Shown in pieces: positions 3,753-33,466 of a stretch of 42,823 nucleotides of DNA. Each line of letters starts with the position of its first letter. Position 1 is the first letter of the stretch. Source of the DNA: a virus; the IMG/VR virus record IMGVR_UViG_3300045043_000023, positions 1 to 42,823 of that record. The stretch is one strand, 5' to 3'. A program made the translations under genes and the position numbers. The notes beneath the pieces were generated by a model. It had not been told where the DNA came from, searched no databases, and saw only the letters and a program-made list of their open reading frames with translations.

Positions 3753-4144
3753 GTCTGTGCAGGACAAGCCAGAACTCACCGTAGACCAATTGCGTCGTGT
3801 GCTCCTGCGAATGTGCAGGATCATGAACGGGCCATCTGCACAGTGTGCAGAGCCTTGTGCCCGATGCAGCACCGCGAGCGTTCTGTTCACAGTGATCGAC
3901 CCTCCGCGCTTCCTCCGCATTGCCGGTGTCGGCACGGTGGACTTCGGAGAGCCGGACGTGCCTACCCGCCGCCGGGGGCAATCGGGCGTTTCGTCCATCA
4001 CCAGGTCGTTGAAGTGGTGATCACCGTCTCCGGGTGAGCCTGACGGGTGCCGACCGTCGCCGGGTCGTTCGTCCGGGCGTTTCGACCACAAGGACATAGG
4101 GTCGTTGAAGCAGTCCGCATCGCTCAGTGCGGAAAACCCCAACA
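3753..4144 (+). promoter_or_regulatory. Long non-coding leader upstream of the major capsid gene, carrying repeats and palindromes
   Basis: No frame has coding-like composition. TGTGCAG(G/A) occurs at 3756, 3812 and 3844. Perfect palindromes lie at 3836..3850 and 4016..4025. CGGGCGTTTCG (3983, 4074) and GGTCGTTGAAG (4004, 4100) are each duplicated. Confidence 0.4.
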
Positions 4145-10316: not shown

Positions 10317-12369
10317 CGGTGTGATCCCTGGCGGCCCCAGCTTCGTTGGCACCCCTGCGGCGCCTGTGGAGCCTGTGGGCGCCCCAGCGAGCGCGGACGG
10401 GTTCCTGAGCCTCCCTGGCGGGCCGGGCTTTGCCGGGCAGCCACAGCCGCCGGACGTGCCGTGCGACCCGACAGGCGAGGACTGGCGCGGGCCTCCGGGG
10501 CCGATGGGTCCGGTCGGGCCTCCTGGAGTGGACGGCGAGGACGGTGCTGGTGGCGTGCCGTCCGACGCGGTGCCGCTGGTTGAGAGCGGCGCTGGCTCTG
10601 CTGGTGTCAGCACAGCACTTGCGCGCGGCGATCACGTCCATCCGGCGCTGGCTGGTGGTGGTGGCGGCATCCCCGAGCCTGGAACGGACGGTACGATCTA
10701 CGGGCGTGGTGGGGCAACGCCGGCATGGGTGGGTGTTCTGCCGCTGAACGGCGGAACGGTGGCGGGGGTCACGACCTTCAGCGCGGCGGGCAACGCGTTG
10801 AATGTGACTAATATCGTCACGGCTGCCACCCATCGCGTGTTTCGTAGTTCCACGATCACTGCGGCGCCCGACCGGGGTATATCCAGTTTCATCAGCTACA
10901 GCGGGACATATACCGGCGCCGCGCAAGTCCTATCTTCTAACAGTCTGGTGGTGAGCGGCGACAACGTGGATGGTGGAGCGGCGGGCGGTCTTTACAGCAC
11001 ATACATCGGACACCAATTCGGCGGTTCTAACGTAAAGGGGCACCGGACGGGCGCTTTCGTCTCGCTGCAACAGACGGCGAAGAGCGGGAACCTAGACAAG
11101 AACAAATACTTCACCGCGATCGGCGCCGATGCGTCGTCCAATGTTAATGATAACGGGACCGCCGGCTCATTCGTGGGCAATATGTTCGGTTTCAATTTCC
11201 TCGCTCGACTGCTTTCTGGGGCTACATTCTGGAACTCGGTTGTCGGTGGTGAGATCGATGTTGTCGCGGCGGCTGGCGTCAGTGTTGGTTACAAGGAGGG
11301 GTTCAAGGTCGTTCTTTGGGATAACGACGCTGCACAGGGAAGCGTCGCTGATTATGGAATCGGGCTGGCTGCGTCATCGGCAGCAACCCTTGGCTTCAGG
11401 ATAGGGCTCAATTTCTGCAGCCAGGATGGCTACTGGCCGATTGACATCGCTAATGGCACGTTGATCGGTGCTGGCACACCGTTCTCGGCAGCGATACCCA
11501 AGGCGGCGAAGCTGGGCGTGGACTTTTCCAGCATCGCGTTTCTTGATGCTGCGTTTAAGTCCACTGGCTTCCAGGTAGACGGCACCGGCAATGTCACCGC
11601 AGTTGGTGGTGCGTTCAGCTCGGCAGTGACTGCGCCCACGGCTGCGCCTGGCACGACCAGCACGCAGGTTGCGACGACGGCGTTTGTCGGCGCTGCTGTC
11701 GCTGCTGGCGGCGGAGGCGGCGGCATCGCTGAGGCGCCGAATGACTCGGTCTTCTACGCTCGCCGCAATCTGGGTTGGACGGCTGCGGTCGGCTCATTCA
11801 ACACCCGCACCGGCGCGGTCACGCTGACCTCGGGCGATGTGACGACGGCGCTGACGTTCACGCCCTACAACGCCACCAACCCCAGCGGCTACCAGACGGC
11901 GGCCAACGTCACCACCACGCTGGCGCCCTACGCCACTACAGTCTCCGTCACCTCCGCAGTCGCTGCTGGAGTTGGCACCGCATACACCATGGCTGGCTAC
12001 GTCGGTGGTGTGCTCACCGCGTCGCAAGTGCTGCTCGTCCACCAGGTCGGCCAGGCCGTCACCTTCCCGGCCAACTTTGGCACCACAACGTCAGGCGCAT
12101 CGTCGCGCTGCGGCTCACTGGCCAATGCCACGGCCAGCACGGTGCTGACGGTGGGTCAGTGCCCGGCTGCGTCTGATCCGACCGTAGGCGGCAATTACAC
12201 CACGATCGGCACGCTGACGTTCTCCGTTGGCGGACATGCAGGCGCCCTGGCGACGAGCGGCGGCACTACCAAGGCCATCGCAGCCGGCGACTTCATCCGC
12301 ATCACCGGCCCAGCCTCCGCTGACGCTACGCTGGCCAACGTGTTTCTCACGCTCATCGCGAACCGCTAG
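10300..12369 (+). CDS. Tail fibre protein 2 (collagen-like, paralog of fibre 1)
   Basis: Contains GPPGPMGPVGPPGVDGEDG, GDHVHPALAGG, DGTIYGRGGATPAWVGVLPLNGG and RTGAVTLTSGDVT..NPSGYQTAANVTTTLAPYA. The central domain aligns with fibre 1 (FW..DGYWPI..FKSTGF.VDG.GNV). Confidence 0.8.
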   Translation: MMSPPDGVIPGGPSFVGTPAAPVEPVGAPASADGFLSLPGGPGFAGQPQPPDVPCDPTGEDWRGPPGPMGPVGPPGVDGEDGAGGVPSDAVPLVESGAGSAGVSTALARGDHVHPALAGGGGGIPEPGTDGTIYGRGGATPAWVGVLPLNGGTVAGVTTFSAAGNALNVTNIVTAATHRVFRSSTITAAPDRGISSFISYSGTYTGAAQVLSSNSLVVSGDNVDGGAAGGLYSTYIGHQFGGSNVKGHRTGAFVSLQQTAKSGNLDKNKYFTAIGADASSNVNDNGTAGSFVGNMFGFNFLARLLSGATFWNSVVGGEIDVVAAAGVSVGYKEGFKVVLWDNDAAQGSVADYGIGLAASSAATLGFRIGLNFCSQDGYWPIDIANGTLIGAGTPFSAAIPKAAKLGVDFSSIAFLDAAFKSTGFQVDGTGNVTAVGGAFSSAVTAPTAAPGTTSTQVATTAFVGAAVAAGGGGGGIAEAPNDSVFYARRNLGWTAAVGSFNTRTGAVTLTSGDVTTALTFTPYNATNPSGYQTAANVTTTLAPYATTVSVTSAVAAGVGTAYTMAGYVGGVLTASQVLLVHQVGQAVTFPANFGTTTSGASSRCGSLANATASTVLTVGQCPAASDPTVGGNYTTIGTLTFSVGGHAGALATSGGTTKAIAAGDFIRITGPASADATLANVFLTLIANR

Positions 12370-13868
12370 TGGCAGGCCCATGGTACGTTCGTAGCGGTGC
12401 GGCTGGCACAGGCGACGGTCTGAGCTGGACCAACGCGCGCACCACACTGACGACGATGACCTCGGTTGTGGCCGGTGACACGATCTACGTTGCGCATGAC
12501 CATGCCGAGGCGCCTGGCGCCAACCTGACCGTCACCTTCCCAGGGACGCCCGCTAACCCCAACATCGTGCTGTGTGTTCTGAACACCGCCACGCATCCGG
12601 TCGCGTCCACCGACTGGCGCACGACAGGCTCCGTTGCGACCACCGGCATCTTCAGCATCACCACCGCCGGTAGCGCCTACATCTACGGGCTGACATTCAA
12701 CGCCGGGATCACCGCCGCAGGCATCTGCGGGCTTACCATCGGTCTCAACGGCAACTGCTTCCAGTACTACGACGCGTGCGTGCTGCGGCTGTCCAGCACG
12801 ACCAACTCGGCCTCGACGCGCATTACCATCGGCGCCACGGGTAACGGCACACCGAGCCGCATAGTGCTCAACAACACGCAGATGTCGTTCAACGGCATTG
12901 CCTACAATCTAGCGCTTTCCCAAGGCGAGATCGAATGGCGAAACACGGGCACGCCGTTTCCGGCCTCAGTTCCAACCACGCTGATCGCTGTCGTCTCACA
13001 GCCCATCCTCTTCACATTCGAAGGGATCGACTTTTCCTCGATGGTGGCCGGCAAGAGCTTCATAGGGACGATCAACTCGCAATACCGGCTGAACTTCTAC
13101 GGCTGCAAGTTCGGCGGCGGCACGATCTCCCCGGCAACCACATCGCCGGCCGCCGAGGTCTACGTTGTTGGTAGCGGACTGGCCGCCTCGACCACCACAT
13201 CGCTGGCGCAGAAATACGCGCTGGAAGGCACCGAGACGACGGACATCACGATCATCCGCACAGGCGGTGCCAGTGATGGCACGGTGTCAGTGTCACGGGC
13301 CTACACGCCAGCGGCCGGGGCACTGTCACTGCGGCCTTACGCCGGGTTGCCCATGGTAAAATGGAACGACACCACAGGCAGCAACGTCACCGTCACGCTG
13401 TATGGTATCTGGAATGCCGCTGCACTGCCGACCAACGCGCAGATATGGTTCGAGACAGCTTGGCACGGCGATGCCACGTCGCCGCTCATGGCGCTACAGC
13501 ACAACTCGCGTTCCAACCTATCGGCGGCTGCCACGAACTGGACGACAGACGGTTCGCCGTGGGATGCGACGGCACGCGCCAACACCACGCCATATGCACT
13601 GGGCGCTGCGATCAAGACATCCAACACGGGCCGAGTGTTTTTCTGCACCACGGCAGGGACCACGGCAGGCTCAGAGCCTGGAGGCTATGCCTCGGCAACC
13701 GATGGCAGCACGCCGGTCACAGACGGGACAGCGGCATTCCGCGCTGGCATGCGGTTCGCGATGACCTACACGCTATCGGCCCCGCAGCCGCAGCTTAAAG
13801 GCCCAGTCTACCTCACGCCGCGCATTGCCGGCACGACGGCCGCCATCTGGCTCGATCCGGAGTTCTGA
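12369..13868 (+). CDS. Tail-associated protein, possibly beta-helix fold
   Basis: The GTG start shares a base with the upstream TAG. N-terminal GTGDGLSWTNARTTLTTMTSVVAGDTIYVAHD resembles N-termini of pectin-lyase-fold proteins. Thr/Gly/Ala-rich. Confidence 0.45.
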   Translation: MAGPWYVRSGAAGTGDGLSWTNARTTLTTMTSVVAGDTIYVAHDHAEAPGANLTVTFPGTPANPNIVLCVLNTATHPVASTDWRTTGSVATTGIFSITTAGSAYIYGLTFNAGITAAGICGLTIGLNGNCFQYYDACVLRLSSTTNSASTRITIGATGNGTPSRIVLNNTQMSFNGIAYNLALSQGEIEWRNTGTPFPASVPTTLIAVVSQPILFTFEGIDFSSMVAGKSFIGTINSQYRLNFYGCKFGGGTISPATTSPAAEVYVVGSGLAASTTTSLAQKYALEGTETTDITIIRTGGASDGTVSVSRAYTPAAGALSLRPYAGLPMVKWNDTTGSNVTVTLYGIWNAAALPTNAQIWFETAWHGDATSPLMALQHNSRSNLSAAATNWTTDGSPWDATARANTTPYALGAAIKTSNTGRVFFCTTAGTTAGSEPGGYASATDGSTPVTDGTAAFRAGMRFAMTYTLSAPQPQLKGPVYLTPRIAGTTAAIWLDPEF

Positions 13869-14023
13869 TGGCACGCCAATACCCTATCCGTGGGCCGGCG
13901 CCGCTGATCGTCCAGGAGGATACCGCACGGCAATACCCGGTGCGCGACACGATCCTCAACGACACTACAGCGCCGCCCACACCGCCTGCCACTGCGACCG
14001 TCGTGGTGTTCGTCGCAACCTAG
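13868..14023 (+). CDS. Hypothetical small protein (51 aa)
   Basis: Hand-translated MARQYPIRGPAPLIVQEDTARQYPVRDTILNDTTAPPTPPATATVVVFVAT. The ATG overlaps the upstream TGA and the stop lies just before the next gene's RBS. Confidence 0.4.
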   Translation: MARQYPIRGPAPLIVQEDTARQYPVRDTILNDTTAPPTPPATATVVVFVAT

Positions 14024-14032
14024 GAGCAAGCC

Positions 14033-14551
14033 GTGGCCTCCATCGCAATGACGGTGCCGTATCTGCGCACCTCGATGCTGCACATACCGCGCCGCGACCT
14101 GGTGCTTGCGGTCGCCGACAGCCTCTATCTGCGCGTCACTATTGTCGATGCGGACAACCCGTGCGCGCAAGGCATCGAGTTGTCCGGGGGCATCGGTGGG
14201 CCGTCAGCGGTGTTCAGCGTCTGGGCCGACATCCAGGGCTGGCACGATGACTACGGCCTGCTGCTGCCACGCTGCGGGCAGTTGCTGCATAGCGTGGTGG
14301 GCACCCATCCGAGCGGCGTCGTCGGCGCGTTCGATTTCTTCCTGCCGTCCGGTTCCCTGGTGCCGTGGCCACGCCGCTGCGGTTGGGCCGTGCAGCTCAA
14401 CTACGACACCTACGGCGCCGAGGTGCTGACTACCGGCCGCATCGTCGTGCGGCAGATCGGCGCTCCGTTCCTGGCTGTGACGCCGCACCTGCAGACCGAC
14501 GACTACATTCCGATCCATACCGACGATCCTGAGGAGCACCTGTTCGCATGA
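14033..14551 (+). CDS. Hypothetical tail-module protein
   Basis: 172 aa with a GTG start and AGGAG 6 nt upstream. The stop overlaps the next start. Confidence 0.6.
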   Translation: MASIAMTVPYLRTSMLHIPRRDLVLAVADSLYLRVTIVDADNPCAQGIELSGGIGGPSAVFSVWADIQGWHDDYGLLLPRCGQLLHSVVGTHPSGVVGAFDFFLPSGSLVPWPRRCGWAVQLNYDTYGAEVLTTGRIVVRQIGAPFLAVTPHLQTDDYIPIHTDDPEEHLFA

Positions 14552-15987
14552 GCCATAGCGTTCGTCGGGTGGTGGCACGGAGCGGCACACCCATCGTCGA
14601 GACCGACAGCATCCGTATTGTCGAGATGCCGGATATCGGTGCCGTCACCGATGCATCTTCGGTTGTCGGCGAACGTGCCGGATCGGGTCGGTTCGGGGCC
14701 ACGGCGCTCAAGACCTATATCAACAGCTACACCGCACCAGGGACCGGCGGTATCACCCGATCGGTGATTACCAAGGCCGGTGAGTGGGTGTCGGTAATGG
14801 ACTATGGCGCGGTAGGCGACGGTGTGGCCGATGATACGGCGAAGATCCAGGCCGCCATTAACTACGTGCAGACCTTGCCCACAGGCGGCACGGTGCTGTT
14901 TCCGCCAGGGAATTATAAGACCAGTGCCACACTGACAATCTCAAAGGCCGGCGTGTCGCTGCTGGGGATGGGGCGGGCCGCCTCGGTTATCAAGCCGGTT
15001 GCCGGCTCGACCTTCGATTGGCTGCTGGTTCACTCCGACATCTCTCTGTCCTACATCTCGATTGCCAGCCTGGGCTTCGTTCCATTCGGCCAGCAGGCGA
15101 CAGGTCACGTCGGTATCTGCCAGACGGGACGCGCAGCGGTCTGCACCTATCAGGACATACAGCTCACCAATGCCTACCAGGGCTTTCGGGTGGAGGCTGG
15201 CATCGATGGTAGTGTGTGCCGGTGGGTGGACTTTTACATTGCCAACTGCACCGGCTCTGCCTTCTGGATCGGTGCCGACGGCTCTCCGGTTGTCAGCTTC
15301 ACCGCACGAGACGGCGACATCGCACAGTGTGGCGGCGGCTTCCTCTTGCAGAACTGCTCCGGGGTCTATCTGAGTGCCATCAACATCATCCTCTGCACGA
15401 TCGGCGTCCATATGGCGCCGGAAGATGGCGACATGGTCGCGTTCGTGTTCTGCGATATGGTCCTGGCGGATACCTCGACGCAGGACGGCTGGTATTTCCA
15501 CACCGTTGGCACTGGCATCATCGGCAACATCGTCTGCAATAACTGCTGGGCCGCAACGGCTGGGCTAAGTGGCGTGCATGTCGAGGTCGGCTGCAGGCTC
15601 GACGGGTTCACCTGGGCAGACGGGCACGTCCTGCAGAACTATGCGCACGGGTTCCAGTTCAACGGCGGCACCAATCTGTCAGTAAGCAACACTCAGGTGT
15701 ACAACAACAACATCGGCGACTATGCGGCACCACCCGGTGTCGGTGGCCACGGCATCGCGATCGGGCCTGGTGTCAGCGGGTTTCGTCTCATCGGCAATAC
15801 CTGCGGTCCCGGCGGCTGGCACCGGCTGATGCTCGGTCCTAATCGGCAGCATTATGGCATCTATGTTGCCACCGGGGCGAGCGACCACTACGTGGTGATG
15901 GGCAACGTCTGCTCTGGCAATGTCACTGGTGGCACGTTCGATGGCGGCACGGGGACAGCCAAGAGCGTCGTCAGCAACGTGGTGTAG
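14548..15987 (+). CDS. Tailspike / polysaccharide depolymerase (pectate-lyase-3 type beta-helix)
   Basis: VMDYGAVGDGVADDTAKIQAAINYVQTLPTGGTVLFPPGNYKTSATLTI is the classic N-terminal signature of Pectate_lyase_3 / GH28-like tailspikes. Confidence 0.8.
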   Translation: MSHSVRRVVARSGTPIVETDSIRIVEMPDIGAVTDASSVVGERAGSGRFGATALKTYINSYTAPGTGGITRSVITKAGEWVSVMDYGAVGDGVADDTAKIQAAINYVQTLPTGGTVLFPPGNYKTSATLTISKAGVSLLGMGRAASVIKPVAGSTFDWLLVHSDISLSYISIASLGFVPFGQQATGHVGICQTGRAAVCTYQDIQLTNAYQGFRVEAGIDGSVCRWVDFYIANCTGSAFWIGADGSPVVSFTARDGDIAQCGGGFLLQNCSGVYLSAINIILCTIGVHMAPEDGDMVAFVFCDMVLADTSTQDGWYFHTVGTGIIGNIVCNNCWAATAGLSGVHVEVGCRLDGFTWADGHVLQNYAHGFQFNGGTNLSVSNTQVYNNNIGDYAAPPGVGGHGIAIGPGVSGFRLIGNTCGPGGWHRLMLGPNRQHYGIYVATGASDHYVVMGNVCSGNVTGGTFDGGTGTAKSVVSNVV

Positions 15988-15992
15988 CGCCG

Positions 15993-17459
15993 ATGTCCGA
16001 CACGCTCGACGCACTGAAGACGGCGCTGGCTCCGAAGCAGGGGATGAAGCGCATCCCGTTTCCGCTGGAGAGCTACGAGCATCCGTCATTGCCGTTGGTG
16101 TCTAAGCGCCTCGTGAATTTGATGGCTGAGAAGCAGCCGGCCGATGCGCGGACGACCGCAGCGCTGGTCTCGACGCCGGGGCTGGTGGACTACCTGTCGG
16201 TGGGCACCGGGCCGATACGGGCGTTGAACGACGACCAGCCGGGCGTTGTGTATTTAGTGTCTGGCACGAAGTTTTACCGCATTTCGTTCCCGACCGGCGG
16301 AGCGCCTAGCGTCGAGATGCTGGCGGACGTTGGCACCGCAGACGCCGGCACATCGCCGTGGAACAGCTTTGTCACGATCGCCGCCGGGCCTACCGCAGCG
16401 GTCGTGTGCGTCGCGCCGCGTGCCTATACCTGCAAGCACTTACCCGGCGAGCCGTTGAACCAGATCACGGACCCCGACTTTCCTGGCGCCACGTCGGTGA
16501 CATACGTTGACGGGTATTTCGCGTTCTCGTCGCTCGGCGACACGGCGCAGTGGTTCGTCTCCCGTGTGCTCGATCCGCTTTCGTACGATGCGCTCGACTT
16601 CGCGTTCTCCGACGCGCTGCCGAACATCATCCGCCGGGTGATCACCCATCGCGGTCAGGTCTGGACCGTTGGCGAGGCCGGCTTTGAGGTCTGGTATGAC
16701 AGCGGCAATGCCGACTTTCCGTTTCGCCGGGCCAGTGGTGGCATCATCGATATCGGCACCGGCTCGCCGCAGGCAGTCTGTCGCGCCGAGGAGAGCGTGT
16801 GGTGGGTGGGCCTCGACGGGGTGGTCTATGGCTCGAACGGCTACAAGGCGACGCGGGTTTCGACGCACGCGATCGAGGCGATCATCGGTGACAACTCGGT
16901 CGCCCTGACCGCGCTCACGCATCCCTACCGGGGCCATTGGTTCTACTGCCTGACGACGCTGGATCAGCGGACGCTGGTTTACGACATAACGGGCGGCGTG
17001 TGGCACGAGCGATCGACCAGCACGGACGGCACGCTGCCGTGGCGGGCTGCTTCGGCGGCGGTGGAGAACAACTCGCTGCATCTGTACGGCGATCGGTCGT
17101 CGGGGCAGCTCTATACGCTCGGCATGCAGGCGACTGACGCGGGGGTTGCCGTGCTGCGTCAGGCGACATTGCCGCCGCTGTGGGCCGAGACGCGACGGGC
17201 GTTCTGTGCGCGGGTCGAGGTGGAGATGGAGGTCGGTGGTGCGTCCACGCCTGGCAACCTGCTGCTGGAGTGGTCGGACGATGGCAGCCGGACGTGGGCG
17301 GCGGGGCGGACTATGTCGTCCGGTGCGTCGGATGATCTGCGACACCGGGTTTACACCACGCGGCTGGGTTCGTTCAGGCAGCGCACGTTTCGGCTCAGTA
17401 GCCACGGGCTTACCAGGCTGTATGCCGTGGACGCAGACATCCAGCCAGGGGCGCACTGA
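15993..17459 (+). CDS. Tail hub protein, P22 gp10-like
   Basis: 488 aa. Several blocks align by eye with P22 gp10 as I recall it (WFVSRVLDP..; TLVYDITGGVWHE; LLLEWSDDGSRTW...RLGSFRQRTFRL). Confidence 0.7.
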   Translation: MSDTLDALKTALAPKQGMKRIPFPLESYEHPSLPLVSKRLVNLMAEKQPADARTTAALVSTPGLVDYLSVGTGPIRALNDDQPGVVYLVSGTKFYRISFPTGGAPSVEMLADVGTADAGTSPWNSFVTIAAGPTAAVVCVAPRAYTCKHLPGEPLNQITDPDFPGATSVTYVDGYFAFSSLGDTAQWFVSRVLDPLSYDALDFAFSDALPNIIRRVITHRGQVWTVGEAGFEVWYDSGNADFPFRRASGGIIDIGTGSPQAVCRAEESVWWVGLDGVVYGSNGYKATRVSTHAIEAIIGDNSVALTALTHPYRGHWFYCLTTLDQRTLVYDITGGVWHERSTSTDGTLPWRAASAAVENNSLHLYGDRSSGQLYTLGMQATDAGVAVLRQATLPPLWAETRRAFCARVEVEMEVGGASTPGNLLLEWSDDGSRTWAAGRTMSSGASDDLRHRVYTTRLGSFRQRTFRLSSHGLTRLYAVDADIQPGAH

Positions 17460-17977
17460 TGCCGGCTAACCCGCGCAGCCTGGAGCCGCCGTTCTACGAT
17501 CCGGTGTTGTCGGAGCATAAGGACGGGCAACAGTTCAGCCACGCCTGGACGGACTATCAGCAGCGGGTGGCCGACAAGCTGCAGGTGCTGGACCAGGGCG
17601 TGGTGGACGGCTCTGATGCGGAGTCCGGCGATGTGGGTGAATACCTCACCGCGAGCGGCAGTGTGGGCATGCCGGCCAATGCCGTGACGACGGTGGCAAC
17701 GCTGACGCTGACGCCAGGAGACTGGGATGTGAGCGGCGGCGTGACGTTTGCCATTACCGCAGCGGCATCGACGCGCTACGGCGTGGGCATCGACGGCGTG
17801 CTGACCAACGAGATGGTGGCGACGATCCCGACCGGCAGCGGCACCTGGCGGCTGGCTGCGGCTCCGGTGCGGCGCAATGTCAGTGTCGGCACGGTGGTGA
17901 CGCTCAGTGCCCTGGCCGGGTTCAGTTCGGGGTCGGTGGCGGCGAGCGGCGTGATATCGGCGCGTAGGATGCGGTGA
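17459..17977 (+). CDS. Hypothetical tail protein (sits where P22 has its needle/plug gene)
   Basis: 172 aa, start overlaps the upstream stop. No recognisable motif. Confidence 0.5.
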   Translation: MPANPRSLEPPFYDPVLSEHKDGQQFSHAWTDYQQRVADKLQVLDQGVVDGSDAESGDVGEYLTASGSVGMPANAVTTVATLTLTPGDWDVSGGVTFAITAAASTRYGVGIDGVLTNEMVATIPTGSGTWRLAAAPVRRNVSVGTVVTLSALAGFSSGSVAASGVISARRMR

Positions 17978-19017
17978 CGTTCATTATCTTCGCGCTGCCT
18001 CGGTCGCGCACCGCGTGGACTGCCAGGTTCCTGACATACGGCGACTGGCAATGTGGCCATGATGAGATCAAGCACTGCCGATCGCTAGACGATATCGCGT
18101 CGTGGATAGGCCAGCCCTGCACCGGGACGGTTGAGACGGCTGCCGCGCCCTTCTGGCGTATGCTGGGGCGGTTCGGCGATGTCAGGGTGGCGACAGTGCG
18201 ACGGCCTGTCGCGGACGTTGTGGCGAGCCTCCAGGCGGTCGCACCAGGGGCGTTCGATACCGACGTGACGACGGCGGCGATGATGCGGATCGACCGCAAG
18301 CTGGATCAGATCGAACGACGGCTGCCGGACGTGCTCTCGGTGCGGTTCGAGGATCTGGCGACCGAGGACGGATGCCGTCGCCTGTGGCAGCACTGCCTGC
18401 CGTATCCGTTCGATGCCCGCTGGCACGCGATGCTGGATGGCGTGAACATCCAGGACAATCTCGGCCTGACCATCCGCTACTACCATGCGCACGCACCGCA
18501 ACTGAAGAAACTAGCCGGGCTGGCCGCGCACCGGATACGCGCCGACATGCGGCCGACCGAGCGCGAGTTCGACGGCATGACGTTTCACGTGGAACCGTTC
18601 GCCGACTTCGTGCGCGATGCTGAGACGCTGATTACGGATCACGCTGCACTGGTCGGACGTAAGGCGGGGCTGGATTTCAATGTGCCGCTGTTCCAGGGGT
18701 TGGACGATATCGGCGCTCTGCAGGTTATGACGGCGCGGTCCAACGGACGTTGCTTCGGGTATCTGGTGTCGATTGTCGCGCCATCGCTTGACGGGCCGGA
18801 CATCAGGGAAGGGCACCACACGATGTTCTACACGGCACCCGAGGTGCGCGGGTTGGGCGTGCGACTGCTGATGCGCGCCAACGATGCGCTGCGTGAGCGT
18901 GGCGTGCAGCAGATCATCATGCGGGCTGGTGTGGTCGGTTCAGGGCCAACGCTGGGCGCCGTGTATCGTCGGCTCGGCGCGACCGAGTTCGGACAACTTT
19001 ATCGTCTGGAGGCTTAG
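17974..19017 (+). CDS. Sulfotransferase-like / GNAT acetyltransferase fusion protein
   Basis: N-terminus FALPRSRTAWTARFL matches the PAPS 5'-phosphosulfate loop (PRSGTT). VRRPVADVVAS matches the 3'-phosphate RxPxDxxxS motif. C-terminus EVRGLGVRLLMRANDALRERGVQQI is GNAT motif A. Confidence 0.6.
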   Translation: MTFIIFALPRSRTAWTARFLTYGDWQCGHDEIKHCRSLDDIASWIGQPCTGTVETAAAPFWRMLGRFGDVRVATVRRPVADVVASLQAVAPGAFDTDVTTAAMMRIDRKLDQIERRLPDVLSVRFEDLATEDGCRRLWQHCLPYPFDARWHAMLDGVNIQDNLGLTIRYYHAHAPQLKKLAGLAAHRIRADMRPTEREFDGMTFHVEPFADFVRDAETLITDHAALVGRKAGLDFNVPLFQGLDDIGALQVMTARSNGRCFGYLVSIVAPSLDGPDIREGHHTMFYTAPEVRGLGVRLLMRANDALRERGVQQIIMRAGVVGSGPTLGAVYRRLGATEFGQLYRLEA

Positions 19018-19701
19018 ATGGGCATCGGTGCGGCAGGGATTGCGGCAATCGGCGCTGGGGTGTCTGCGGCGTCCGGCATTGCCGGCGGCATCATGCAGTC
19101 GAACACGGCTGCGAAGGGCCAGGCGGCAGCGCGGGCGCAGTTCGAGCAGCAGCGCAATGACCTCGGGCCGTATCGTGAGGCAGGGCTAGGCTCGATCCAG
19201 GCGCAGCAGGACTTGCTCGGGTTGAACGGTCAGCCGGCAGCCGATGCGGCTATGCTGCAGTATCAGCAATCACCCGGCTATGCCTGGCAGATGGACGAGG
19301 GACTGCGGGCGGTTGACGCAGGAGCAGCGGCTAAGGGGATGTTGCGTTCAGGTGCTACGCTGAAGGCCGAGCAGACGTTCGGGCAGGGATTGGCCGATAC
19401 GGATTTCGGGCAGTACTACACCAGGCTTCACGGATTATCGACGCTCGGTGAGAGTGCTGCAGCGGGCGCTCCTGTGGCGCAGGCGGCCGGCGTCGAGACG
19501 GGCGGGGCCAATGCCCAGAACTCTATCTACGGCAACACCGCATCTGCGCTCGGTGGCACCGCCAACATGCTGCTCAACAATAAGGGTTTTCAGGACTGGC
19601 TAGGCGGTGGAGTTAGCCCATCGACTGTGTCGAACAATGCGCTCTATCAACAGGGTGCGTTCGCGGCGGCCGGGCCTGGTGCTTATGGGCCATTCCAATG
19701 A
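19018..19701 (+). CDS. Internal virion / ejection protein A (putative)
   Basis: Gly/Ala-rich hydrophobic N-terminus MGIGAAGIAAIGAGVSAASGIAGGI. First of three consecutive genes at the end of the virion operon. Confidence 0.55.
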   Translation: MGIGAAGIAAIGAGVSAASGIAGGIMQSNTAAKGQAAARAQFEQQRNDLGPYREAGLGSIQAQQDLLGLNGQPAADAAMLQYQQSPGYAWQMDEGLRAVDAGAAAKGMLRSGATLKAEQTFGQGLADTDFGQYYTRLHGLSTLGESAAAGAPVAQAAGVETGGANAQNSIYGNTASALGGTANMLLNNKGFQDWLGGGVSPSTVSNNALYQQGAFAAAGPGAYGPFQ

Positions 19702-21905
19702 GCGGAGCACAGACATCGAGCTTCTACCCGGTCAACCAACTGTTGCAGGACAACGCGCAGCAGATCCAGAACCAATACGCGCCGCAGCGGAACGAGCTGT
19801 TCGTGCAGCGGGCGCAGCAGGAGATCGGCGGGACCGAGATCGAGATGCTGGCGCGTGGTTCGCAGTCGCTGCTAGCTCTCGGCGACGAGGCCAAGATGGC
19901 GGAGCAGTATCCCAGCACGGTTGCGGAGCTGCAGCGGTATGGCTTCGCCAAGAACGCGCCCTCGGTGTTTCCTGGCCGGGCTGCGCTTGAGCGCATCGCG
20001 GCGATGGGCACGTCGAGCGAGAAGCAGTATGCGATGGGACAGAGCCAGAGGGCACTGGATGCCATCTATCCTACCGGCCAGGCCCCTGGTCCTGGTGCCT
20101 CAACGGCACCGACTGGTGCGGCTCCTGCCGTGGCGCCAGGCAGCGGCGCGACGTTCGCTGGTGGCATTGCCGGGTTCGAGGGCGGTGGCAACGCCATGCC
20201 TCCGGAGAACCCACGCTGGCCGGTAGCGCGCGGCGGTCCTGCTGGAGCGCACCAGTTCATCGCCTCGACGTGGAACGAATTTGCCAAGGCCAACCCCGAC
20301 CTGTTCAAGGGCATGTCGCCGGAGCAAATCTTGGCGGCACGCAGCAATCCGGAACTCTCTACCCAGGCAGCCAATTGGTATGCTGGCGAGAACGCCAAGG
20401 CGCTGACGGCGCGGAACATCGAGCCGACGCCGGCTAATCTCGGAATATCCCATGCGCTCGGTGCCGGAGGTGCCGCCAAGGTGCTGACCGCGCCGGACAA
20501 CACGCCGCTGTCGCAGGTGATCCCGGAGACGATCGCGCAGAACCCGCAGTATGGCCGGATGACGGTGGGCGACCTGAAGCGCCAGTATAGCCGCCTCGGC
20601 CCTGTAGGTGGCCCAGGGGCGCCTGGGGCGGGCGGTGGGGTGGCTGCGCGCACTGGCGGCGTCGATGTGGCGGGGCCAGGGGTGCCTCCAGGGGCCGTTG
20701 CGCCGGTTGCCGCGCCAGGGACAGCGGGCACGACGGCGGCGTCTCCAGCGGCTCCTGTAGCCGCGCCAGCAGCAACTCCCGCTGCGCCAACCCTGAACCT
20801 CGATGCTGATCAACTGAGGCCGCAGGACCGCGAGGACCTGGCGCGCTTCAAGGCGGCGCTGGTCGGCAATCCGAACGGCGCGACACTGCTGCAGGGTGAG
20901 ATCGACAGGCGACGCACAGCCAACGTGGCAGCCGAGGAGAAGCTGTACCAGCACGGACGCAATGCACAGGCTGACATGCTCCAGCGGCGTGCTGCGGAAT
21001 TAGCGGAGATACAGTCGCAACTGGCGCAGAGGAACGCATCAACGGCCGAGCAGAGGGCGGCGGCGGAGGCGACCGAGAAAGCGCGTGTTGCTGAACGTCA
21101 GGCCCGGTTGGACGCTGCTGGTGGCAATTCCGCCCGAGCGGTCGTGCTGGAGATCGGTCCGAAGATCATCGCCGGCACAGCGACGGACGCAGAGCGCCAG
21201 ACATACGAGCTGAACTACCAGGATTTGACCAAGGGCCAATTGGTGCCGGTGCCTGATCCATCCGGCGAGCCTGGCAAGACGATCTTCGTAACGGCGCCAG
21301 GCTCGATCCCGTCCTACCTGCCGCCGCCAGACTACCGGCCACCCAGCAAGAGCGGCTCGTCACTGCCTGCGCAGGGCGCGAACTCAGAAGGCGGTGGAGA
21401 TACGGCGGCGCCAGACCCGAATGCGTCAACGTGGACGCCGGGGCAGAAGCCTGCGCCACTGGTTAAGCCGCCGGCCCCTCTGACCGAAGGGCAGGGGAAG
21501 GCAGGGCGGTTTTCTGATCGGATGTTTGCGGCCGAGGACATCATGGCGCCGCTGCATAGCCAAGCACAGAACTGGGCAGAACGAGCCAAGCAGAACGTGG
21601 GAGACTATATAGGATACTCGATCAATTCTCCTGCTTACGAAAGCATGAGGCAGGCGCAAGACAGTTGGATTATGGCCAAGCTGCGCGATGAAAGCGGCGC
21701 GACGATTGGCACTGCTGAATTCGAACGGGACCGCAGGACGTTTTTCCCGCAGCCTGGCGAGGGTTCGGCCGTTGTCGAGCAGAAGCGCAAGGCGCGAGAG
21801 ATTGAAATGGCCGCCAGGGCGCGGGAAGCCGGGTCGCAATACAAGTTGCCACCACGCGCCGTGCCATCATCTGCTGGCGGCTGGACCGTTAAGAGGATCG
21901 ACTGA
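19698..21905 (+). CDS. Internal virion / ejection protein with a lytic transglycosylase-like domain
   Basis: GGIAGFEGGGN...GPAGAHQFIASTWNEFAKANPDLF...NPELSTQAANWYAGEN resembles an SLT-type muralytic domain. 735 aa with a long Ala/Pro-rich and coiled-coil remainder. Confidence 0.65.
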   Translation: MSGAQTSSFYPVNQLLQDNAQQIQNQYAPQRNELFVQRAQQEIGGTEIEMLARGSQSLLALGDEAKMAEQYPSTVAELQRYGFAKNAPSVFPGRAALERIAAMGTSSEKQYAMGQSQRALDAIYPTGQAPGPGASTAPTGAAPAVAPGSGATFAGGIAGFEGGGNAMPPENPRWPVARGGPAGAHQFIASTWNEFAKANPDLFKGMSPEQILAARSNPELSTQAANWYAGENAKALTARNIEPTPANLGISHALGAGGAAKVLTAPDNTPLSQVIPETIAQNPQYGRMTVGDLKRQYSRLGPVGGPGAPGAGGGVAARTGGVDVAGPGVPPGAVAPVAAPGTAGTTAASPAAPVAAPAATPAAPTLNLDADQLRPQDREDLARFKAALVGNPNGATLLQGEIDRRRTANVAAEEKLYQHGRNAQADMLQRRAAELAEIQSQLAQRNASTAEQRAAAEATEKARVAERQARLDAAGGNSARAVVLEIGPKIIAGTATDAERQTYELNYQDLTKGQLVPVPDPSGEPGKTIFVTAPGSIPSYLPPPDYRPPSKSGSSLPAQGANSEGGGDTAAPDPNASTWTPGQKPAPLVKPPAPLTEGQGKAGRFSDRMFAAEDIMAPLHSQAQNWAERAKQNVGDYIGYSINSPAYESMRQAQDSWIMAKLRDESGATIGTAEFERDRRTFFPQPGEGSAVVEQKRKAREIEMAARAREAGSQYKLPPRAVPSSAGGWTVKRID

Positions 21906-23737
21906 TGGCGCGCTTTGAGGTCACCGGCCCGGACGGCACGCGGTATCAGGTCGAGGGGCCGGACGGCACGACCGAACAGGACGCGATCGCACAGGCGCAG
22001 AAGCAGATCGCAGCGCAACCACCGCCATCCGGGCCTGATCTCGCCGCGACAGCGGATGTTCCCGGTCAGGCTCAAGGCACCCCAGCAGAGATTTCCGGCC
22101 GGGTTGCGCAAACCGGTTCGGCCTGGCAGCCGGCCATCAATACGGTTGGGCGGGTCGGGCAGGCAGCGGCAGAGGGGTGGCGCGGCGGGACGATGCAGAC
22201 GCCCGAGGCTCGCGCCGAGAATGAGAAAACGCTGCTCGGGCATTTCCTGATTAATCCGTTGGTTGAAGCCGGCAATCTGCCATTCCGTGCGATGGGTGCG
22301 GTTGGAGCGGGTGCCGGTCAAGCTGCCTATGAAGGCGGCGCCGCTATCGGAGGCCCCGCGCTGGGGCGTGACTTGTTTATGCTGAACCAGTTAGCGCCAG
22401 CACTCATGATGCCAGGCTCGATGCATCCAGGGCTGCCAGAGGCGCCCAAGCCTGGGCCACGTTTTATCGGAGAGTATCCGGGCGGCGGTGTCGCCCTACC
22501 TGGCACAACGTCGCTGGATCGCCTTACCGGCGCCGTCAGGCGCGTGGACGATGCGGCGCCGGCACGTTCAGTTCCCAGCGCCCCTGGTGTGGCGCCCGAG
22601 CGCGGGTCAGTTGGTGCTGCTGCATCGGTGAACCCGCCGCCTATGACACCAGCCGAGGCGCTGGCGTCTCGCTCGACGGGCGAGCAGCAGCGGCTGATGA
22701 CAACACCTCAACCTGGGGATGCTCGTGAGTATGTGCCTGGTGTGAAACCGACCAAGGCAGAGATAGAATTGGCGCCCAGTGTATCGCGTGAGTCCAAGGG
22801 ATTGCGGCAGGAGTTCCGTGAGGGATTCACTGATAAAGAGAAGGCTGACAACGAACTCTACCACGACTTTTACGATACCCGCGCCGGCACGCCGACGATT
22901 GTGGAGCGTATGGATCGCGAACGGGCGGCGCAGGCTGAGAAGGACTTGGCAGAGACGTGGCGCAACAAGCGCGATGCAGATGCTTCGCCGCTGTTGGATG
23001 TAGCGAATCAGATTAAAGCATCGCCGGATGGCCGGCGCCCCGTGGTCCGCAATGCCATCGATAGCGTCGTCAAAGAATTGTATGATGCCAACGGCAATCT
23101 GCTTACTGATCCCGAACAACTCTATGGCGTGCGCAAACACCTTGGTGATCTGCTGTCGAAGGAGGCCGCGCGCGATAATCCGATGGCGGTGCGTGCTACG
23201 GCCAACCTTAAGCAGTTGCAGCGCACGCTTGATGGGGTGATTGAGGAGGCCGCGCCAGGGTTCGGCCAATACCTGCGCAACTTTTCCGAGGCATCTAAGC
23301 CGATCGATGTGATGGAGCGATTGCAGAAGGCGAAGGCTGGTCTAACGAATGGCGCTGATCGTGTGATTACGTTCGGCAAGTTCGACCGGCTTATGAAGGA
23401 TCTAGTGGCGGAGCGTGCTGATCCGGATATGACGCTTCCAGCGAAGCATATTCCGGATGAGGTGATGGGTGAGTTGTTTGATATGCACCACAGTCTGGCA
23501 CGGTCCGCGTCTGATCAGGAGTTGGCCAAGACGCGCGGATCTGACACCAGCCAGATGCTAGGTGAATTGGGCAGGCAAGGGATCGCGCAGGGGATCGCAG
23601 CGATTGTGCCAATACCCGGCGCATCGCTGGCGGCGCCGTTTGTGACGAGACAGTTTGGCGGTATGCTCACTAAACGGCGGCTTGAAAAGCACCTTAACCC
23701 TGACGTGACGCCCTATAAGAACAGCTTGGGACCATAG
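21905..23737 (+). CDS. Internal virion / ejection protein (large)
   Basis: 610 aa, last gene of the operon. N-terminal MARFEVTGPDGTRYQVEGPDGTTEQDAIAQAQ resembles the starts of podovirus DNA-transfer proteins. Confidence 0.55.
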   Translation: MARFEVTGPDGTRYQVEGPDGTTEQDAIAQAQKQIAAQPPPSGPDLAATADVPGQAQGTPAEISGRVAQTGSAWQPAINTVGRVGQAAAEGWRGGTMQTPEARAENEKTLLGHFLINPLVEAGNLPFRAMGAVGAGAGQAAYEGGAAIGGPALGRDLFMLNQLAPALMMPGSMHPGLPEAPKPGPRFIGEYPGGGVALPGTTSLDRLTGAVRRVDDAAPARSVPSAPGVAPERGSVGAAASVNPPPMTPAEALASRSTGEQQRLMTTPQPGDAREYVPGVKPTKAEIELAPSVSRESKGLRQEFREGFTDKEKADNELYHDFYDTRAGTPTIVERMDRERAAQAEKDLAETWRNKRDADASPLLDVANQIKASPDGRRPVVRNAIDSVVKELYDANGNLLTDPEQLYGVRKHLGDLLSKEAARDNPMAVRATANLKQLQRTLDGVIEEAAPGFGQYLRNFSEASKPIDVMERLQKAKAGLTNGADRVITFGKFDRLMKDLVAERADPDMTLPAKHIPDEVMGELFDMHHSLARSASDQELAKTRGSDTSQMLGELGRQGIAQGIAAIVPIPGASLAAPFVTRQFGGMLTKRRLEKHLNPDVTPYKNSLGP

Positions 23738-23739
23738 CC

Positions 23740-23922
23740 TTAGCGGCGGCTGGCATAATCTTCCCATTCACGCTGGTGCGCTGACTTTCCATCGGCCGGC
23801 GCCTCTTTCGTCAGGCGTCGCTCCGCGCGATCGGCCAGCCATTCGTTGCAGCGGTTCCAGCACACGCAGGCGACCAGCACGCCGATACAGCCGGCAAACC
23901 CGGCGAGGAATGCGTGGATCAC
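23740..23922 (-). CDS. Small membrane protein
   Basis: 60 aa with one N-terminal TM segment (IHAFLAGFAGCIGVLVACVCW). Last gene of the leftward operon. Confidence 0.55.
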   Translation of the reverse strand: MIHAFLAGFAGCIGVLVACVCWNRCNEWLADRAERRLTKEAPADGKSAHQREWEDYASRR

Positions 23923-24158
23923 CGTCGATACTCCACGCCCATCTTGTCGGCGATGGCGAACAGCACCTCTGACATCTGATCGAGCCGGCTGGCCGTCAGC
24001 GCCTCGTGGGTTGCGATCCGCTCCGTGTGCATTTCCAGTAGTTGGCGGGTAATGCTCTGATTGATCTTCGCCTCATCACGAATGGTTCGCACGTCGGCCT
24101 GGAGCCGGCGCACCATCTCGCCTAGCAGTTCCAATCGGATTACAGGTGTATCAGCCAT
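23919..24158 (-). CDS. Hypothetical coiled-coil protein
   Basis: Start set at MADTPV (24158) with GGAGG 8 nt upstream. The 24206 start lacks an RBS. Confidence 0.6.
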   Translation of the reverse strand: MADTPVIRLELLGEMVRRLQADVRTIRDEAKINQSITRQLLEMHTERIATHEALTASRLDQMSEVLFAIADKMGVEYRR

Positions 24159-24238: not shown

Positions 24239-25213
24239 TCAGTCTCCTGCGGCGAGCTTTTCCGCGCCGGTGATCTGCACCTCCTCCAGATCCTCCGAGG
24301 CGCTGGCACCGTCGTCCGGGAAGCGGGCGTAAGCGTTGGCTAGCAACTCGCTGATGCGGCGCTTGATTGCGTCCGGCGCCTCTGCCGTGGCTTTGCCTAC
24401 GGTGCGGTGGCCACCGATCTCGATCACCTCTTCCTGCGTCTGTGCGTTCGCCAGCAATGTGTCGAGGTTGCGCAGCCACTTCCCACCGTCCGGCTCATCG
24501 AGCGGGTCGGTAGCATGGGCCGCTGCTTTCTCGGCAATCCGGTCAGCGCGCTTCATGTCGCTGGCAGCGGCGCGCAGCGGTGGCGGCTCCGGATCGGCCT
24601 GCGCGTCCAGCGTGGTGCCGGTGAAATCGTCGTGCAGCGTCTTGCCTTGCATCTCCTCCATTGTGTAGCCGGAGGAGAACTCGGGAAACGCCATGCGCAA
24701 TGCCTGGGCTTCCGCGACCTTGGCGAGTTGGCCGTAAGGCCGCTTCTTCCACATCGTGTTCGGAGCTGACGTGTCACGCTTGGCGGTGGCGTAGTTCTCA
24801 ACCCATCGCTCGGTGGCAGTAAATTCGCGTGGGTGACCCTGGACGATCCGGCGCACGGTCATCCGGCACCATGCCGGGTAGGTTATCGCTGTGCCAGACA
24901 ATGTCTCCCGCACGTCAGGGCCGAACTCTGGCTCCGACTTGCCGCCATACTCACCGCTGCGTGCCGCTTTGATGCGGTAGTCTGCGATACCGGGCATCAG
25001 CACATCGCGCGTCTCGTACTGCCCGTTGGGCAGCTTTACCGACGTTGGCACGATGTAGACGGGGCGCAGCATCGGATCGAGGCCGTTGGCGCGACAGTAT
25101 GCCAGCACCAGTTCGATGCTTTCGCGTTTGGCGCCTGGATACAGGCTGTTTTCCAAGACGCGGATAACTTCGTCGGAAGAGACTGGCTCGGTGGCGACAA
25201 TGGCATTCATCAT
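24239..25213 (-). CDS. recT: RecT / Red-beta family single-strand annealing protein
   Basis: ESIELVLAYCRANGLDPMLRPVYIVP and MWKKRPYGQLAKVAEAQALRMAFPE are characteristic RecT/Bet blocks. Confidence 0.85.
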   Translation of the reverse strand: MMNAIVATEPVSSDEVIRVLENSLYPGAKRESIELVLAYCRANGLDPMLRPVYIVPTSVKLPNGQYETRDVLMPGIADYRIKAARSGEYGGKSEPEFGPDVRETLSGTAITYPAWCRMTVRRIVQGHPREFTATERWVENYATAKRDTSAPNTMWKKRPYGQLAKVAEAQALRMAFPEFSSGYTMEEMQGKTLHDDFTGTTLDAQADPEPPPLRAAASDMKRADRIAEKAAAHATDPLDEPDGGKWLRNLDTLLANAQTQEEVIEIGGHRTVGKATAEAPDAIKRRISELLANAYARFPDDGASASEDLEEVQITGAEKLAAGD

Positions 25214-29512: not shown

Positions 29513-29812
29513 ATGCTGAATGACGAGCAGGCCGGCATCGTCAAGGGGCTGTTGGCGCGTGGGGAAAAGCAGCACGATATCGCGGCCTTCCTGGGCGTCA
29601 ACGGTGGTCGCATCGCGGAGATTGCCAAGGGCTACAAGTTCGCCGACGTGAAGCCGGCCGCCAAGCGTGATCTACCGACGCCTGCTGTCGTGATGCAGGG
29701 CTATTCTTCGTACGTTGCATTGCAGGCGCTGCGGATTATCGAACTTGCGGTGCATTCGGCGATCGCCCGTATTGCCGAGCATGTCGAGCCGCATTCGAAG
29801 AATCCGTCGTGA
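29513..29812 (+). CDS. Hypothetical HTH-like protein
   Basis: 99 aa with GGGAGG upstream. GEKQHDIAAFLGVNGGRIAEIAKG looks like an HTH. Confidence 0.55.
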   Translation: MLNDEQAGIVKGLLARGEKQHDIAAFLGVNGGRIAEIAKGYKFADVKPAAKRDLPTPAVVMQGYSSYVALQALRIIELAVHSAIARIAEHVEPHSKNPS

Positions 29813-33224: not shown

Positions 33225-33466
33225 CCGCCAGTTTCGACCACCTGGTCCGCCAATGCGATCCAGACTACCGCCGCGCCGAGGCCATCGCCCTCAACATCAC
33301 CGACGACCTCGACGAGCTGCACGACGACCACCAGATCGTCATCATCTCAGCCCTCGCTCACATCCTCATCGCATTCATGCGCCAATGCCCGGCGCAATAC
33401 CGCACCGCCCTCACCGACAGCCTGCTCGCCGATCTCCGCCAGCAAATCCTCGATCCCGATGCTTGA
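33221..33466 (+). CDS. Hypothetical protein
   Basis: 81 aa with overlapping start and stop. Confidence 0.55.
   Translation: MTASFDHLVRQCDPDYRRAEAIALNITDDLDELHDDHQIVIISALAHILIAFMRQCPAQYRTALTDSLLADLRQQILDPDA

Follow-up and report, generated by a model that had tools for sequence, protein, structure and literature searches.

What does a gene whose protein joins a sulfotransferase-like domain to a GNAT acetyltransferase-like domain do between the tail genes and the DNA-ejection genes of a phage? We addressed this question for the 42,823 nucleotides of IMG/VR virus record IMGVR_UViG_3300045043_000023 (positions 1 to 42,823; the window), which contain such a gene, here called the ST-GNAT gene (ST, sulfotransferase). 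With moderate confidence, we propose that it encodes an assembly helper for the DNA-ejection proteins of the type referred to as IVP-A (IVP, internal virion protein), in an expanded, two-domain form. This reading is based on the two folds of the protein, the conserved residues in its loops, the fixed and coupled position of the gene, and the fusion to or adjacency with domains resembling gp13 of phage T7 in relatives. The features of the gene and its protein are as follows:

17974..19017, + strand: ST-GNAT gene, complete; 347 aa, GTG start, TAG stop (list of open reading frames (ORFs) and sequence)
17974..18558, + strand: sulfotransferase-fold domain, aa 1-195 (AlphaFold2 (AF2) model, Foldseek, Pfam in relatives, PHROG)
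17992..18018, + strand: loop of the 5'-phosphosulfate-binding type, ALPRSRTAW, aa 7-15 (direct reading and conservation)
18058..18063, + strand: H29-D30, candidate catalytic base pair (conservation; putative catalytic role)
18196..18228, + strand: motif of the 3'-phosphate-binding type, VRRPVADVVAS, aa 75-85 (R77 and S85 eight residues apart)
18565..19014, + strand: GNAT-fold domain, aa 198-347 (Foldseek, BFVD, PHROG, hhalign)
18847..18870, + strand: GNAT motif-A-like loop, RGLGVRLL, aa 292-299 (direct reading and conservation)

The GTG start codon (17974-17976) overlaps the TGA stop codon (17975-17977) of a 172-aa ORF upstream, and the TAG stop codon (19015-19017) abuts the ATG (19018) of the next gene; thus, the ST-GNAT gene is tightly coupled to both of its neighbors. 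No promoter-like or terminator-like site was found beside the gene, site counts in the region being at chance level, and its G+C content is that of the neighboring genes. The protein sequence shows neither an evident signal peptide nor an evident membrane segment.

Two enzyme folds and their conserved loops

The AF2 model of aa 1-196 has a pLDDT of 92.1 and a pTM of 0.83, and its best Foldseek matches in the PDB are sulfotransferases (8w5z, 5wrj, 5x2b, 8y9p, 3ap2 and 1cjm), with E values of 1e-4 to 2e-3 and query template modeling (TM) scores of 0.44-0.56. The sulfotransferases named are the tyrosylprotein sulfotransferase (TPST) of a tick (1.1e-4), human TPST1 and TPST2, SULT7A1, the bacterial SgdX2 and SULT1A3, the E values for the TPST enzymes, SULT7A1 and SgdX2 being 1e-4 to 8e-4. 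The loop sequence, P-R-S-R-T-x-W, contains no Walker-A GK[ST], and the domain is therefore better described as having a sulfotransferase-type fold. The corresponding 5' loop of canonical sulfotransferases is of the P-K/R-S-G-T-T-W type. In a profile search, the stretch containing VRRPVADVVAS was aligned to SgdX2 (8y9p). The N-terminal domain also matches phrog_10855 ('hydrolase') over aa 2-167 (1.9e-12). While the window protein has no Pfam sulfotransferase match at E up to 1, Sulfotransfer_3 and Sulfotransfer_4 are each matched in 16 of 40 aligned relatives, and full-length relatives with 52-58% identity to the window protein exceed the curated cut-offs of Sulfotransfer_3 (P0109; 30.3 bits vs 27) or Sulfotransfer_4 (P0038, P0077, P0108, P0116 and P0055; 25.5-28.2 bits vs 22.8).

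Both motifs are strongly conserved in the family. Among 150 cluster representatives, clustered at 50% identity and used for all conservation figures given here, the 5' loop retains P9 (93%), R10 (99%), S11 (94%), T or S at position 13 (98%) and W15 (98%), and the 3' motif retains R77 (99%) and S85 (95%). H29, D/E30 and E/D54 are each conserved in 98%. Position 12 is R in 92% of the representatives and the canonical G in 6%. The window domain, thus, has in common with the PAPS (3'-phosphoadenosine 5'-phosphosulfate) sulfotransferases among its best fold matches, i.e., TPST1/2, tick TPST and SgdX2, the P-[RK]-S-x-T loop and the R...S 3'-phosphate motif. Unlike these enzymes, it is far more compact (195 aa) and carries R in place of the loop glycine, and the window protein falls below the Pfam cut-off. 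That protein tyrosine sulfotransferases are the top fold matches of the predicted structure is a suggestive hint at the acceptor rather than evidence for it.

The full-length AF2 model (pLDDT 86.8, pTM 0.58) is consistent with two well-folded domains, the relative orientation of which is uncertain. With this model, Foldseek returned 451 PDB matches at E up to 1e-3, in which the GNAT half is dominant, the top ones all being GNAT proteins; RimI, AAC(3), Naa60 and YncA match at E ~1e-7 to 1e-6 with target TM scores of 0.6-0.74. Viral GNAT proteins lead the BFVD matches, the best being the N-acetyltransferase of phage VpV262 (E 1.1e-9), and phrog_1249 ('acetyltransferase') matches aa 249-345 (1.8e-6). 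For the window protein, the Pfam family Acetyltransf_1 scores 16.6 bits (E 0.01), which is under the cut-off of 20.7; the family is matched by 14 of the 40 aligned relatives, of which P0117 (20.8 bits) and P0154 (23.1 bits) exceed the cut-off. Over the three Pfam families, the identity of such full-length relatives to the window protein is 51-58%. The loop R292-G-L-G295-V-R297 resembles motif A (R/Q-x-x-G-x-G/A) except at its last position, with G293 conserved in 89% and G295 in 96% of the representatives; other conserved residues in this half are H223 (98%), Y263 (99%), R333 (95%) and G335 (98%). The NCBIfam search of the window protein gave nothing useful, and in the PDB sequence search the GNAT matches were marginal only. 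The top match of that search, the de novo designed helical bundle 9u78, was discarded as a short, repeated 21-residue coincidence.

The slot in front of the ejection genes

According to Hardies et al. (PMC4819975), a small non-structural gene is consistently present in podoviruses between the genes for tail tube B and IVP-B. In T7 (gp13, 'IVP-A') and most phiRIO-1-like phages, this slot gene matches acetyltransferases by HHpred, and the acetyltransferase-family slot genes of the phiRIO-1-like phages are described as non-structural (PMC4819975). IVP-A homologues have been placed at the syntenic position in P22 and epsilon15 by published hidden Markov model comparisons (PMC4819975; PMC6775973). 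In work cited in PMC4819975, T7 gp13 is described as needed for morphogenesis and as not retained in virions.

The late operon of the window is of the P22 type and includes the following genes:

700-2862: portal (phrog_156)
4127-5257: major head protein (phrog_334)
14548-15987: pectate-lyase-like tailspike (PF12708)
15993..17459, + strand: P22 gp10-like tail hub (phrog_578, 1.8e-77; P22 gp10 is in the same PHROG)
17459..17977, + strand: 172-aa ORF in the position of the P22 needle gene (26), without Pfam or PHROG match
19018..19701, + strand: ejection protein of the P22 gp7 family (IVP-B, the class of T7 gp14; phrog_598, 1.4e-24)
19698..21905, + strand: 735-aa presumed ejection protein, gp20/gp15-like by position (size and synteny only)
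21905..23737, + strand: 610-aa presumed ejection protein, gp16-like by position (size and synteny only; P22 gp16 has 609 aa)

In P22, the gene order is 10, 26, 14, 7, 20, 16. Because the order in the window is hub (phrog_578), 172-aa ORF, ST-GNAT and gp7-like (phrog_598), the ST-GNAT gene lies in the slot of P22 gene 14. P22 gp7 itself matches phrog_598 at 2e-95. In BLASTP, the hub, gp7-like and 610-aa proteins of the window gave no significant match to P22 gp10, gp7 and gp16, so that the gp10 and gp7 assignments rest on the PHROG profiles, and the 735-aa protein has no significant Pfam or PHROG family match. The window has no gp13-like ORF; the 172-aa ORF was considered as a candidate gp13-like domain and was ruled out, having neither a PHROG match nor a match to the model of the gp13-like domain described below. 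A megablast search of positions 12000-24000 against isolate phages gave no match; the window therefore represents a phage without a close cultured relative.

The C-terminal half of the window protein, ORFS of VpV262 and a 154-aa GNAT protein ('putative acetyltransferase') of Pseudomonas phage PfAn1 all belong to phrog_1249 (ORFS, 1.6e-20; PfAn1, 2.6e-9), and the latter two match the GNAT profile of the ST-GNAT family with 97-99% probability in hhalign. This places the C-terminal half in one of the classes of IVP-A-slot GNAT proteins. VpV262 ORFS lies directly 5' of ORFT and of the gene for a 1536-aa internal virion protein, and the PfAn1 gene lies directly 5' of a phrog_598 ejection protein gene; these homologues, thus, have the same place as the ST-GNAT gene, directly 5' of an IVP-B/gp7-like gene and genes for larger internal virion proteins, but are single-domain proteins of 154-160 aa. 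The gene for a 198-aa protein 5' of the PfAn1 GNAT gene was tested as a split-off sulfotransferase domain and is not sulfotransferase-like. Separately, gp27 ('acetyltransferase') of Escherichia phage K1E, which is K1E/SP6-like, matches the C-terminal GNAT profile with 98% hhalign probability; its gene (L010:4761-5222) lies outside the IVP-A slot, two genes 5' of the portal gene. GNAT proteins of the phrog_1249 type are, therefore, not confined to one position.

T7 gene 13 resembles the ST-GNAT gene in being a small late gene between the tail tube/hub gene and the gene for the first ejection protein, its product has acetyltransferase matches by published HHpred analysis, and gp13-like domains are fused or adjacent to the ST-like domain in relatives of the window protein. 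Unlike T7 gp13, the window protein is 2.5x larger and has an added sulfotransferase-fold domain, and there is no detectable sequence similarity between the two. P22 gp14 ('virion stability factor') occupies the same slot in the P22-type order, in which the gp10- and gp7-family genes have the same order as in the window; it differs in its size (151 aa vs 347 aa) and in having no detected sequence similarity to the window protein.

The ST-GNAT family is large. Among 8000 candidates scored, at least 894 proteins match at E up to 0.001, query coverage exceeds 90% in all but four of the best 120 homologues, and 1302 cluster representatives emerged from an exhaustive search of the 50%-identity library, 156 of which match at E up to 1e-30. 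Relatives are encoded on at least 388 IMG/VR contigs. The fusion is present in none of the 50,697 isolate phage genomes searched, and the family has, therefore, gone unstudied; tblastn of the full protein against isolate phages matched the GNAT half only, in PfAn1. Among representative genomes of 185,579 species, only 8 are carriers, mostly Alphaproteobacteria (Azospirillum, Acetobacteraceae, Sphingomonas, Rhodopila and Beijerinckiaceae) and two metagenome-assembled genomes of Gammaproteobacteria, and the databases label these proteins simply as 'GNAT family N-acetyltransferase' or 'sulfotransferase'. Distant ST-like relatives labeled 'hydrolase' or 'hypothetical' are encoded by Xylella phage Sano (L092:3977-4564) and Pseudomonas phage PaMx28 (L091:3992-4534); close to the Sano gene are genes for a 'cysteine dioxygenase' and a MazG-like protein.

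The position of the gene was surveyed in the 80 best IMG/VR loci of these contigs, 71 of which have a downstream ORF. In 48 of the 71, this ORF is a member of the gp7-like family found at this place in the window and usually starts -4 to +3 nt from the stop codon, and several of the remaining loci are broken off by contig ends. By contrast, the upstream gene is similar to the 172-aa ORF of the window in only 4-5 loci (4/76), and the tailspike genes vary between related loci. Because the downstream gp7-like neighbor recurs and the upstream gene varies, the ST-GNAT gene moves together with the ejection cassette rather than with the tail genes. It is coupled and directly 5' of the ejection cassette in several otherwise unrelated podovirus backbones. 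In a BPP-1-like prophage of Azospirillum rugosum IMMIB AFH-6, it lies between the gene for a 699-aa protein and genes for 280-aa and 890-aa proteins, and in an SU10-adaptor-type phage it is followed by ORFs of 308, 704, 206 and 2224 aa. The gp7-like proteins encoded after ST-GNAT genes (window 19018-19701 and 41 unique homologues) contain an S-P-G-Y motif, with Y88 conserved in 98% and K116 in 95%. These two residues are possible modification sites as judged from the alignment, but are uninformative without a set of proteins unlinked to sulfotransferase genes.

Some relatives link the ST-like domain to gp13 more closely. Thirty-two of the 150 representatives have an extra N-terminal domain of ~150 aa (X), which matches phrog_308, the T7 gp13 family, in four examples (1.9e-21, 7.7e-13, 5.9e-11 and 1e-4), and the profile of which matches T7 gp13 with 78% hhalign probability (E 1.7e-5). 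The architectures of the 150 representatives are:

ST-GNAT: 95 (and 2 with split matches)
X-ST-GNAT: 21
X-ST: 11
ST only: 18 (many fragment-like)
GNAT only: 2

A gp13-like domain is fused to, or encoded directly 5' of, the ST-like domain in relatives P0136, P0154, P0191 and P0244 and in the loci L098 and L139, two IMG/VR loci with T7-like tails. When the three-domain relative P0136 was used as a single query, IMG/VR gave no match, and an alignment-based scan was needed. In L098 (6902-8386), a separate gp13-like gene (144 aa; phrog_308, 1.8e-11) precedes an ST-GNAT gene (346 aa), the order being tail tube A (phrog_394), tail tube B (phrog_376), gp13-like, ST-GNAT, internal virion protein (phrog_418) and a 737-aa ORF. 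In L139 (6986-8086), the order is tail tube B, a fusion of the gp13-like and ST domains (366 aa), internal virion protein (phrog_418) and an 848-aa protein with a muralytic domain. Thus, whether the tail is P22-like or T7-like, an ST-containing unit lies between tail and ejection genes, and in the fusions found here the ST-like domain has at least one IVP-A-type GNAT-fold partner, of either the gp13-like or the phrog_1249 class. Through the gp13 fusions, the ST domain is linked to gp13 function.

These findings bear on the original prediction in different ways. The reading frame 17974-19017 and its coupling on both sides were confirmed from the ORF list and the sequence, the three quoted motifs were all found at the positions listed above, and the gene does lie inside the late operon directly 5' of the ejection-protein genes. 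Profile and structure searches of both halves retrieved the proposed folds: the N-terminal half is sulfotransferase-like by AF2 and Foldseek, by relatives over the Pfam cut-offs and by the conservation of both motifs, and the C-terminal half is GNAT-like by its fold matches in the PDB and BFVD, by phrog_1249 and by relatives over the Acetyltransf_1 cut-off. Of the three ejection proteins said to be encoded downstream, the first holds up as a gp7-family protein by phrog_598, and the 735-aa and 610-aa proteins are so assigned by size and position only. The premise that the gene is a foreign element in the virion module was not borne out, in that a GNAT-fold gene before the first ejection protein is the recurrent IVP-A of podoviruses. 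Accordingly, the claim that a dual enzyme is no standard component of such a module is retained for the sulfotransferase-like half and dropped for the GNAT half and the position.

Several observations in the window touch neither the ST-GNAT gene nor its slot. An HNH/endonuclease VII-like gene (phrog_1035, 1.4e-20; 5360-6190) separates the major head protein gene from the virion genes that follow. The large terminase gene (Terminase_6N; 34896-36209) is ~7 kb from the portal gene (700-2862) when the window is read as a circle, and a 693-aa ORF (39792-41873) and several unassigned ORFs lie between the two, a spacing that is unusual for a P22-type head module. The early/middle region contains genes for a RecT recombinase, an MT-A70-family DNA methyltransferase and a NusG-like protein (24239-25213 on the - strand, 29809-30756 and 33459-34028).

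A proposed helper for the ejection proteins and the competing explanations

We suggest that the ST-GNAT protein is a late product that remains in the infected cell without being packaged. Its N-terminal domain would bind a 3'-phospho-nucleotide donor, most likely PAPS, and its C-terminal domain would bind an acyl-CoA. The cofactors may then be used for the covalent modification, or the cofactor-dependent priming, of the downstream ejection proteins before these are loaded into the procapsid, with the gp7-like outer-membrane protein as the leading candidate client. In a more specific version, which we regard as unlikely, IVP-A proteins are modifying enzymes, and the ST-GNAT protein sulfates and acylates ejection proteins such as the gp7-like pore former before packaging.

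Non-packaging is supported indirectly, by analogy with T7 gp13, the non-structural status of the phiRIO-1-like slot proteins and the virion proteome of Burkholderia phage JC1. In this Bcep22-like podovirus, the gene for a GNAT protein, gp63, follows the head-closure gene, and a CysH-type PAPS reductase, gp65, is encoded two genes away. Among the 16 proteins of CsCl-purified JC1 virions, gp61 and gp64 were found and gp63 was not detected; over the region L157:2425-4590 (OM283127 40424-42589), neither the GNAT protein nor the 'PAPS reductase' is in the virion proteome. JC1 differs from the window in that the two are separate genes, gp65 is of the CysH/PAPS-reductase family with another fold than the ST domain, and gp63 has a weak likeness to the gp13-like class and none to the GNAT class of the window. 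JC1, thus, provides another, independent example of a virion-gene module that contains both a PAPS-family gene and a GNAT gene, and this pairing may or may not be related to ST-GNAT.

Several points weigh against the proposal of an IVP-A-type helper and, in part, against its chemistry. Using the family profile against the single sequences of T7 gp13 (phrog_308, PF11090) and P22 gp14 (phrog_651, DUF2824), we detected no sequence similarity, and when the profiles of the gp13-like domain and the C-terminal GNAT domain were compared with each other, the probability was only 19.7%, although the alignment was in the same topological register. The homology of the C-terminal GNAT domain to gp13 and gp14 is, therefore, unproven, and the IVP-A assignment rests on position, on the phrog_1249 relatives and on the domain fusions. 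The likeness of the modeled N-terminal domain to sulfotransferases is modest, at the level of the fold only, and does not identify the acceptor; in the same Foldseek list, P-loop kinases (nucleoside and shikimate) come next from ~2e-3. The choice of PAPS as the donor is a guess, as is any acceptor. In the siphoviruses PaMx28 and Sano, moreover, ST-like relatives with 24-29% identity stand alone in DNA-metabolism regions. The ST-like domain is, therefore, not generally linked to ejection proteins and is a mobile module recruited into the IVP-A slot. In the GNAT half, the final G/A position of motif A (R297) is R or K in 79% of relatives, and at the position of the canonical general-acid tyrosine, Y331, 55% of relatives have Y and 28% have F. 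Together with the label 'probable scaffold protein' that Pfam gives to T7 gp13 (PF11090, phrog_308), the degenerate tyrosine and the end of motif A counsel caution on catalysis, which may not be involved.

The last of these points would suit an IVP-A helper that works without chemistry, its enzyme folds acting only as a scaffold or chaperone for holding or delivering the ejection proteins and its loop residues binding only a ligand or client. The GenBank designation of P22 gp14 as a 'virion stability factor' fits this explanation, as does the finding that no modification of ejection proteins was encountered in the literature searched. We nevertheless consider it rather doubtful, because the positions for the 5'- and 3'-phosphates of PAPS are kept in 92-99% of the representatives, the H29, D/E30 and E/D54 positions are nearly invariant, and the G-x-G loop of the GNAT domain is kept; such conservation is typical of active sites and not of scaffolds. 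As far as conservation can tell, these near-invariant polar residues argue for chemistry rather than mere binding. A different chemistry would follow if the N-terminal domain were a P-loop-derived ATP/NTP-binding or kinase-like module that drives the GNAT domain or controls it, an arrangement seen in the tRNA cytidine acetyltransferase TmcA. TmcA (2zpa) is the top-ranked PDB match of the full-length model (E 1.1e-7), nucleoside and shikimate kinases are close behind the sulfotransferases for the N-terminal domain, and phage databases label relatives 'nucleotide triphosphate hydrolase'. However, the TmcA match is a loose overlay of P-loop and GNAT parts with a root-mean-square deviation of ~19 A and TM scores of 0.18-0.31, the loop has no Walker-A GxxxxGK[ST] and instead follows the sulfotransferase pattern, and relatives exceed the Pfam cut-offs for Sulfotransfer_3/4 and not those for kinase families. 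We therefore regard such a module as improbable.

Two further explanations, both raised by the original prediction, direct the enzyme at the host. Injected enzymes are known in other phages, and an enzyme that enters the virion alongside the ejection proteins, is delivered like T4 Alt or the N4 virion RNA polymerase and modifies a host target early would fit a gene that is co-transcribed and coupled with the genes of injected proteins. The evidence, although indirect, points the other way: T7 gp13 is reported not to be retained in virions, the acetyltransferases in the phiRIO-1-like slot are non-structural, and JC1 gp63 went undetected in purified virions in which the flanking gp61 and gp64 were detected. 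The model is also compact and globular, in contrast to the largely helical internal virion proteins of the literature, and we think injection improbable as well. The other explanation is a moron or auxiliary enzyme directed at a glycan of the host envelope or at a small molecule, which, for instance, sulfates or acetylates lipopolysaccharide, exopolysaccharide or a nucleotide sugar and thereby alters the receptor or the depolymerase substrate. Sulfated and acetylated surface glycans exist in alphaproteobacterial hosts, most characterized bacterial sulfotransferases act on glycans or metabolites, and a pectate-lyase-like tailspike gene is nearby. This idea is weakened by the lack of a promoter or terminator of its own at the gene, by a G+C content like that of the neighbors, by the fusion of relatives to a gp13-like morphogenesis domain, by a position tied to the ejection cassette and not to the variable tailspike genes, and by the absence of an evident signal peptide or membrane segment; we consider it the least probable of the explanations.

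Implications for podovirus assembly

The mechanism of the helper gene that precedes the ejection genes, i.e., gene 13 of T7 and gene 14 of P22, has long been unexplained, although the gene is reported to be needed for morphogenesis. The GNAT half and its position are already known as a class in the literature, although not for this family. In the literature searched, we found neither a sulfotransferase in an internal-virion or ejection module of a phage nor its fusion with the two IVP-A classes. If the helper proves to be purely chaperone-like, the ST-GNAT gene is simply a domain-architecture variant of a known gene. If, on the other hand, IVP-A proteins are modifying enzymes, this would be the first protein sulfation in phage assembly, it would explain the role of T7 gp13 and P22 gp14, and it would resemble the activation of pore-forming toxins by dedicated acyltransferases. 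Nothing established is overturned by these findings. Carried by at least 388 IMG/VR contigs and comprising more than 1300 protein clusters, mainly from Alphaproteobacteria-type phages, the family provides a large natural set of domain fusions for probing the function of IVP-A and gp13. Because the slot is occupied here by a protein with two recognizable enzyme folds, it also provides a concrete hypothesis, namely that the helper chemically modifies the ejection proteins.

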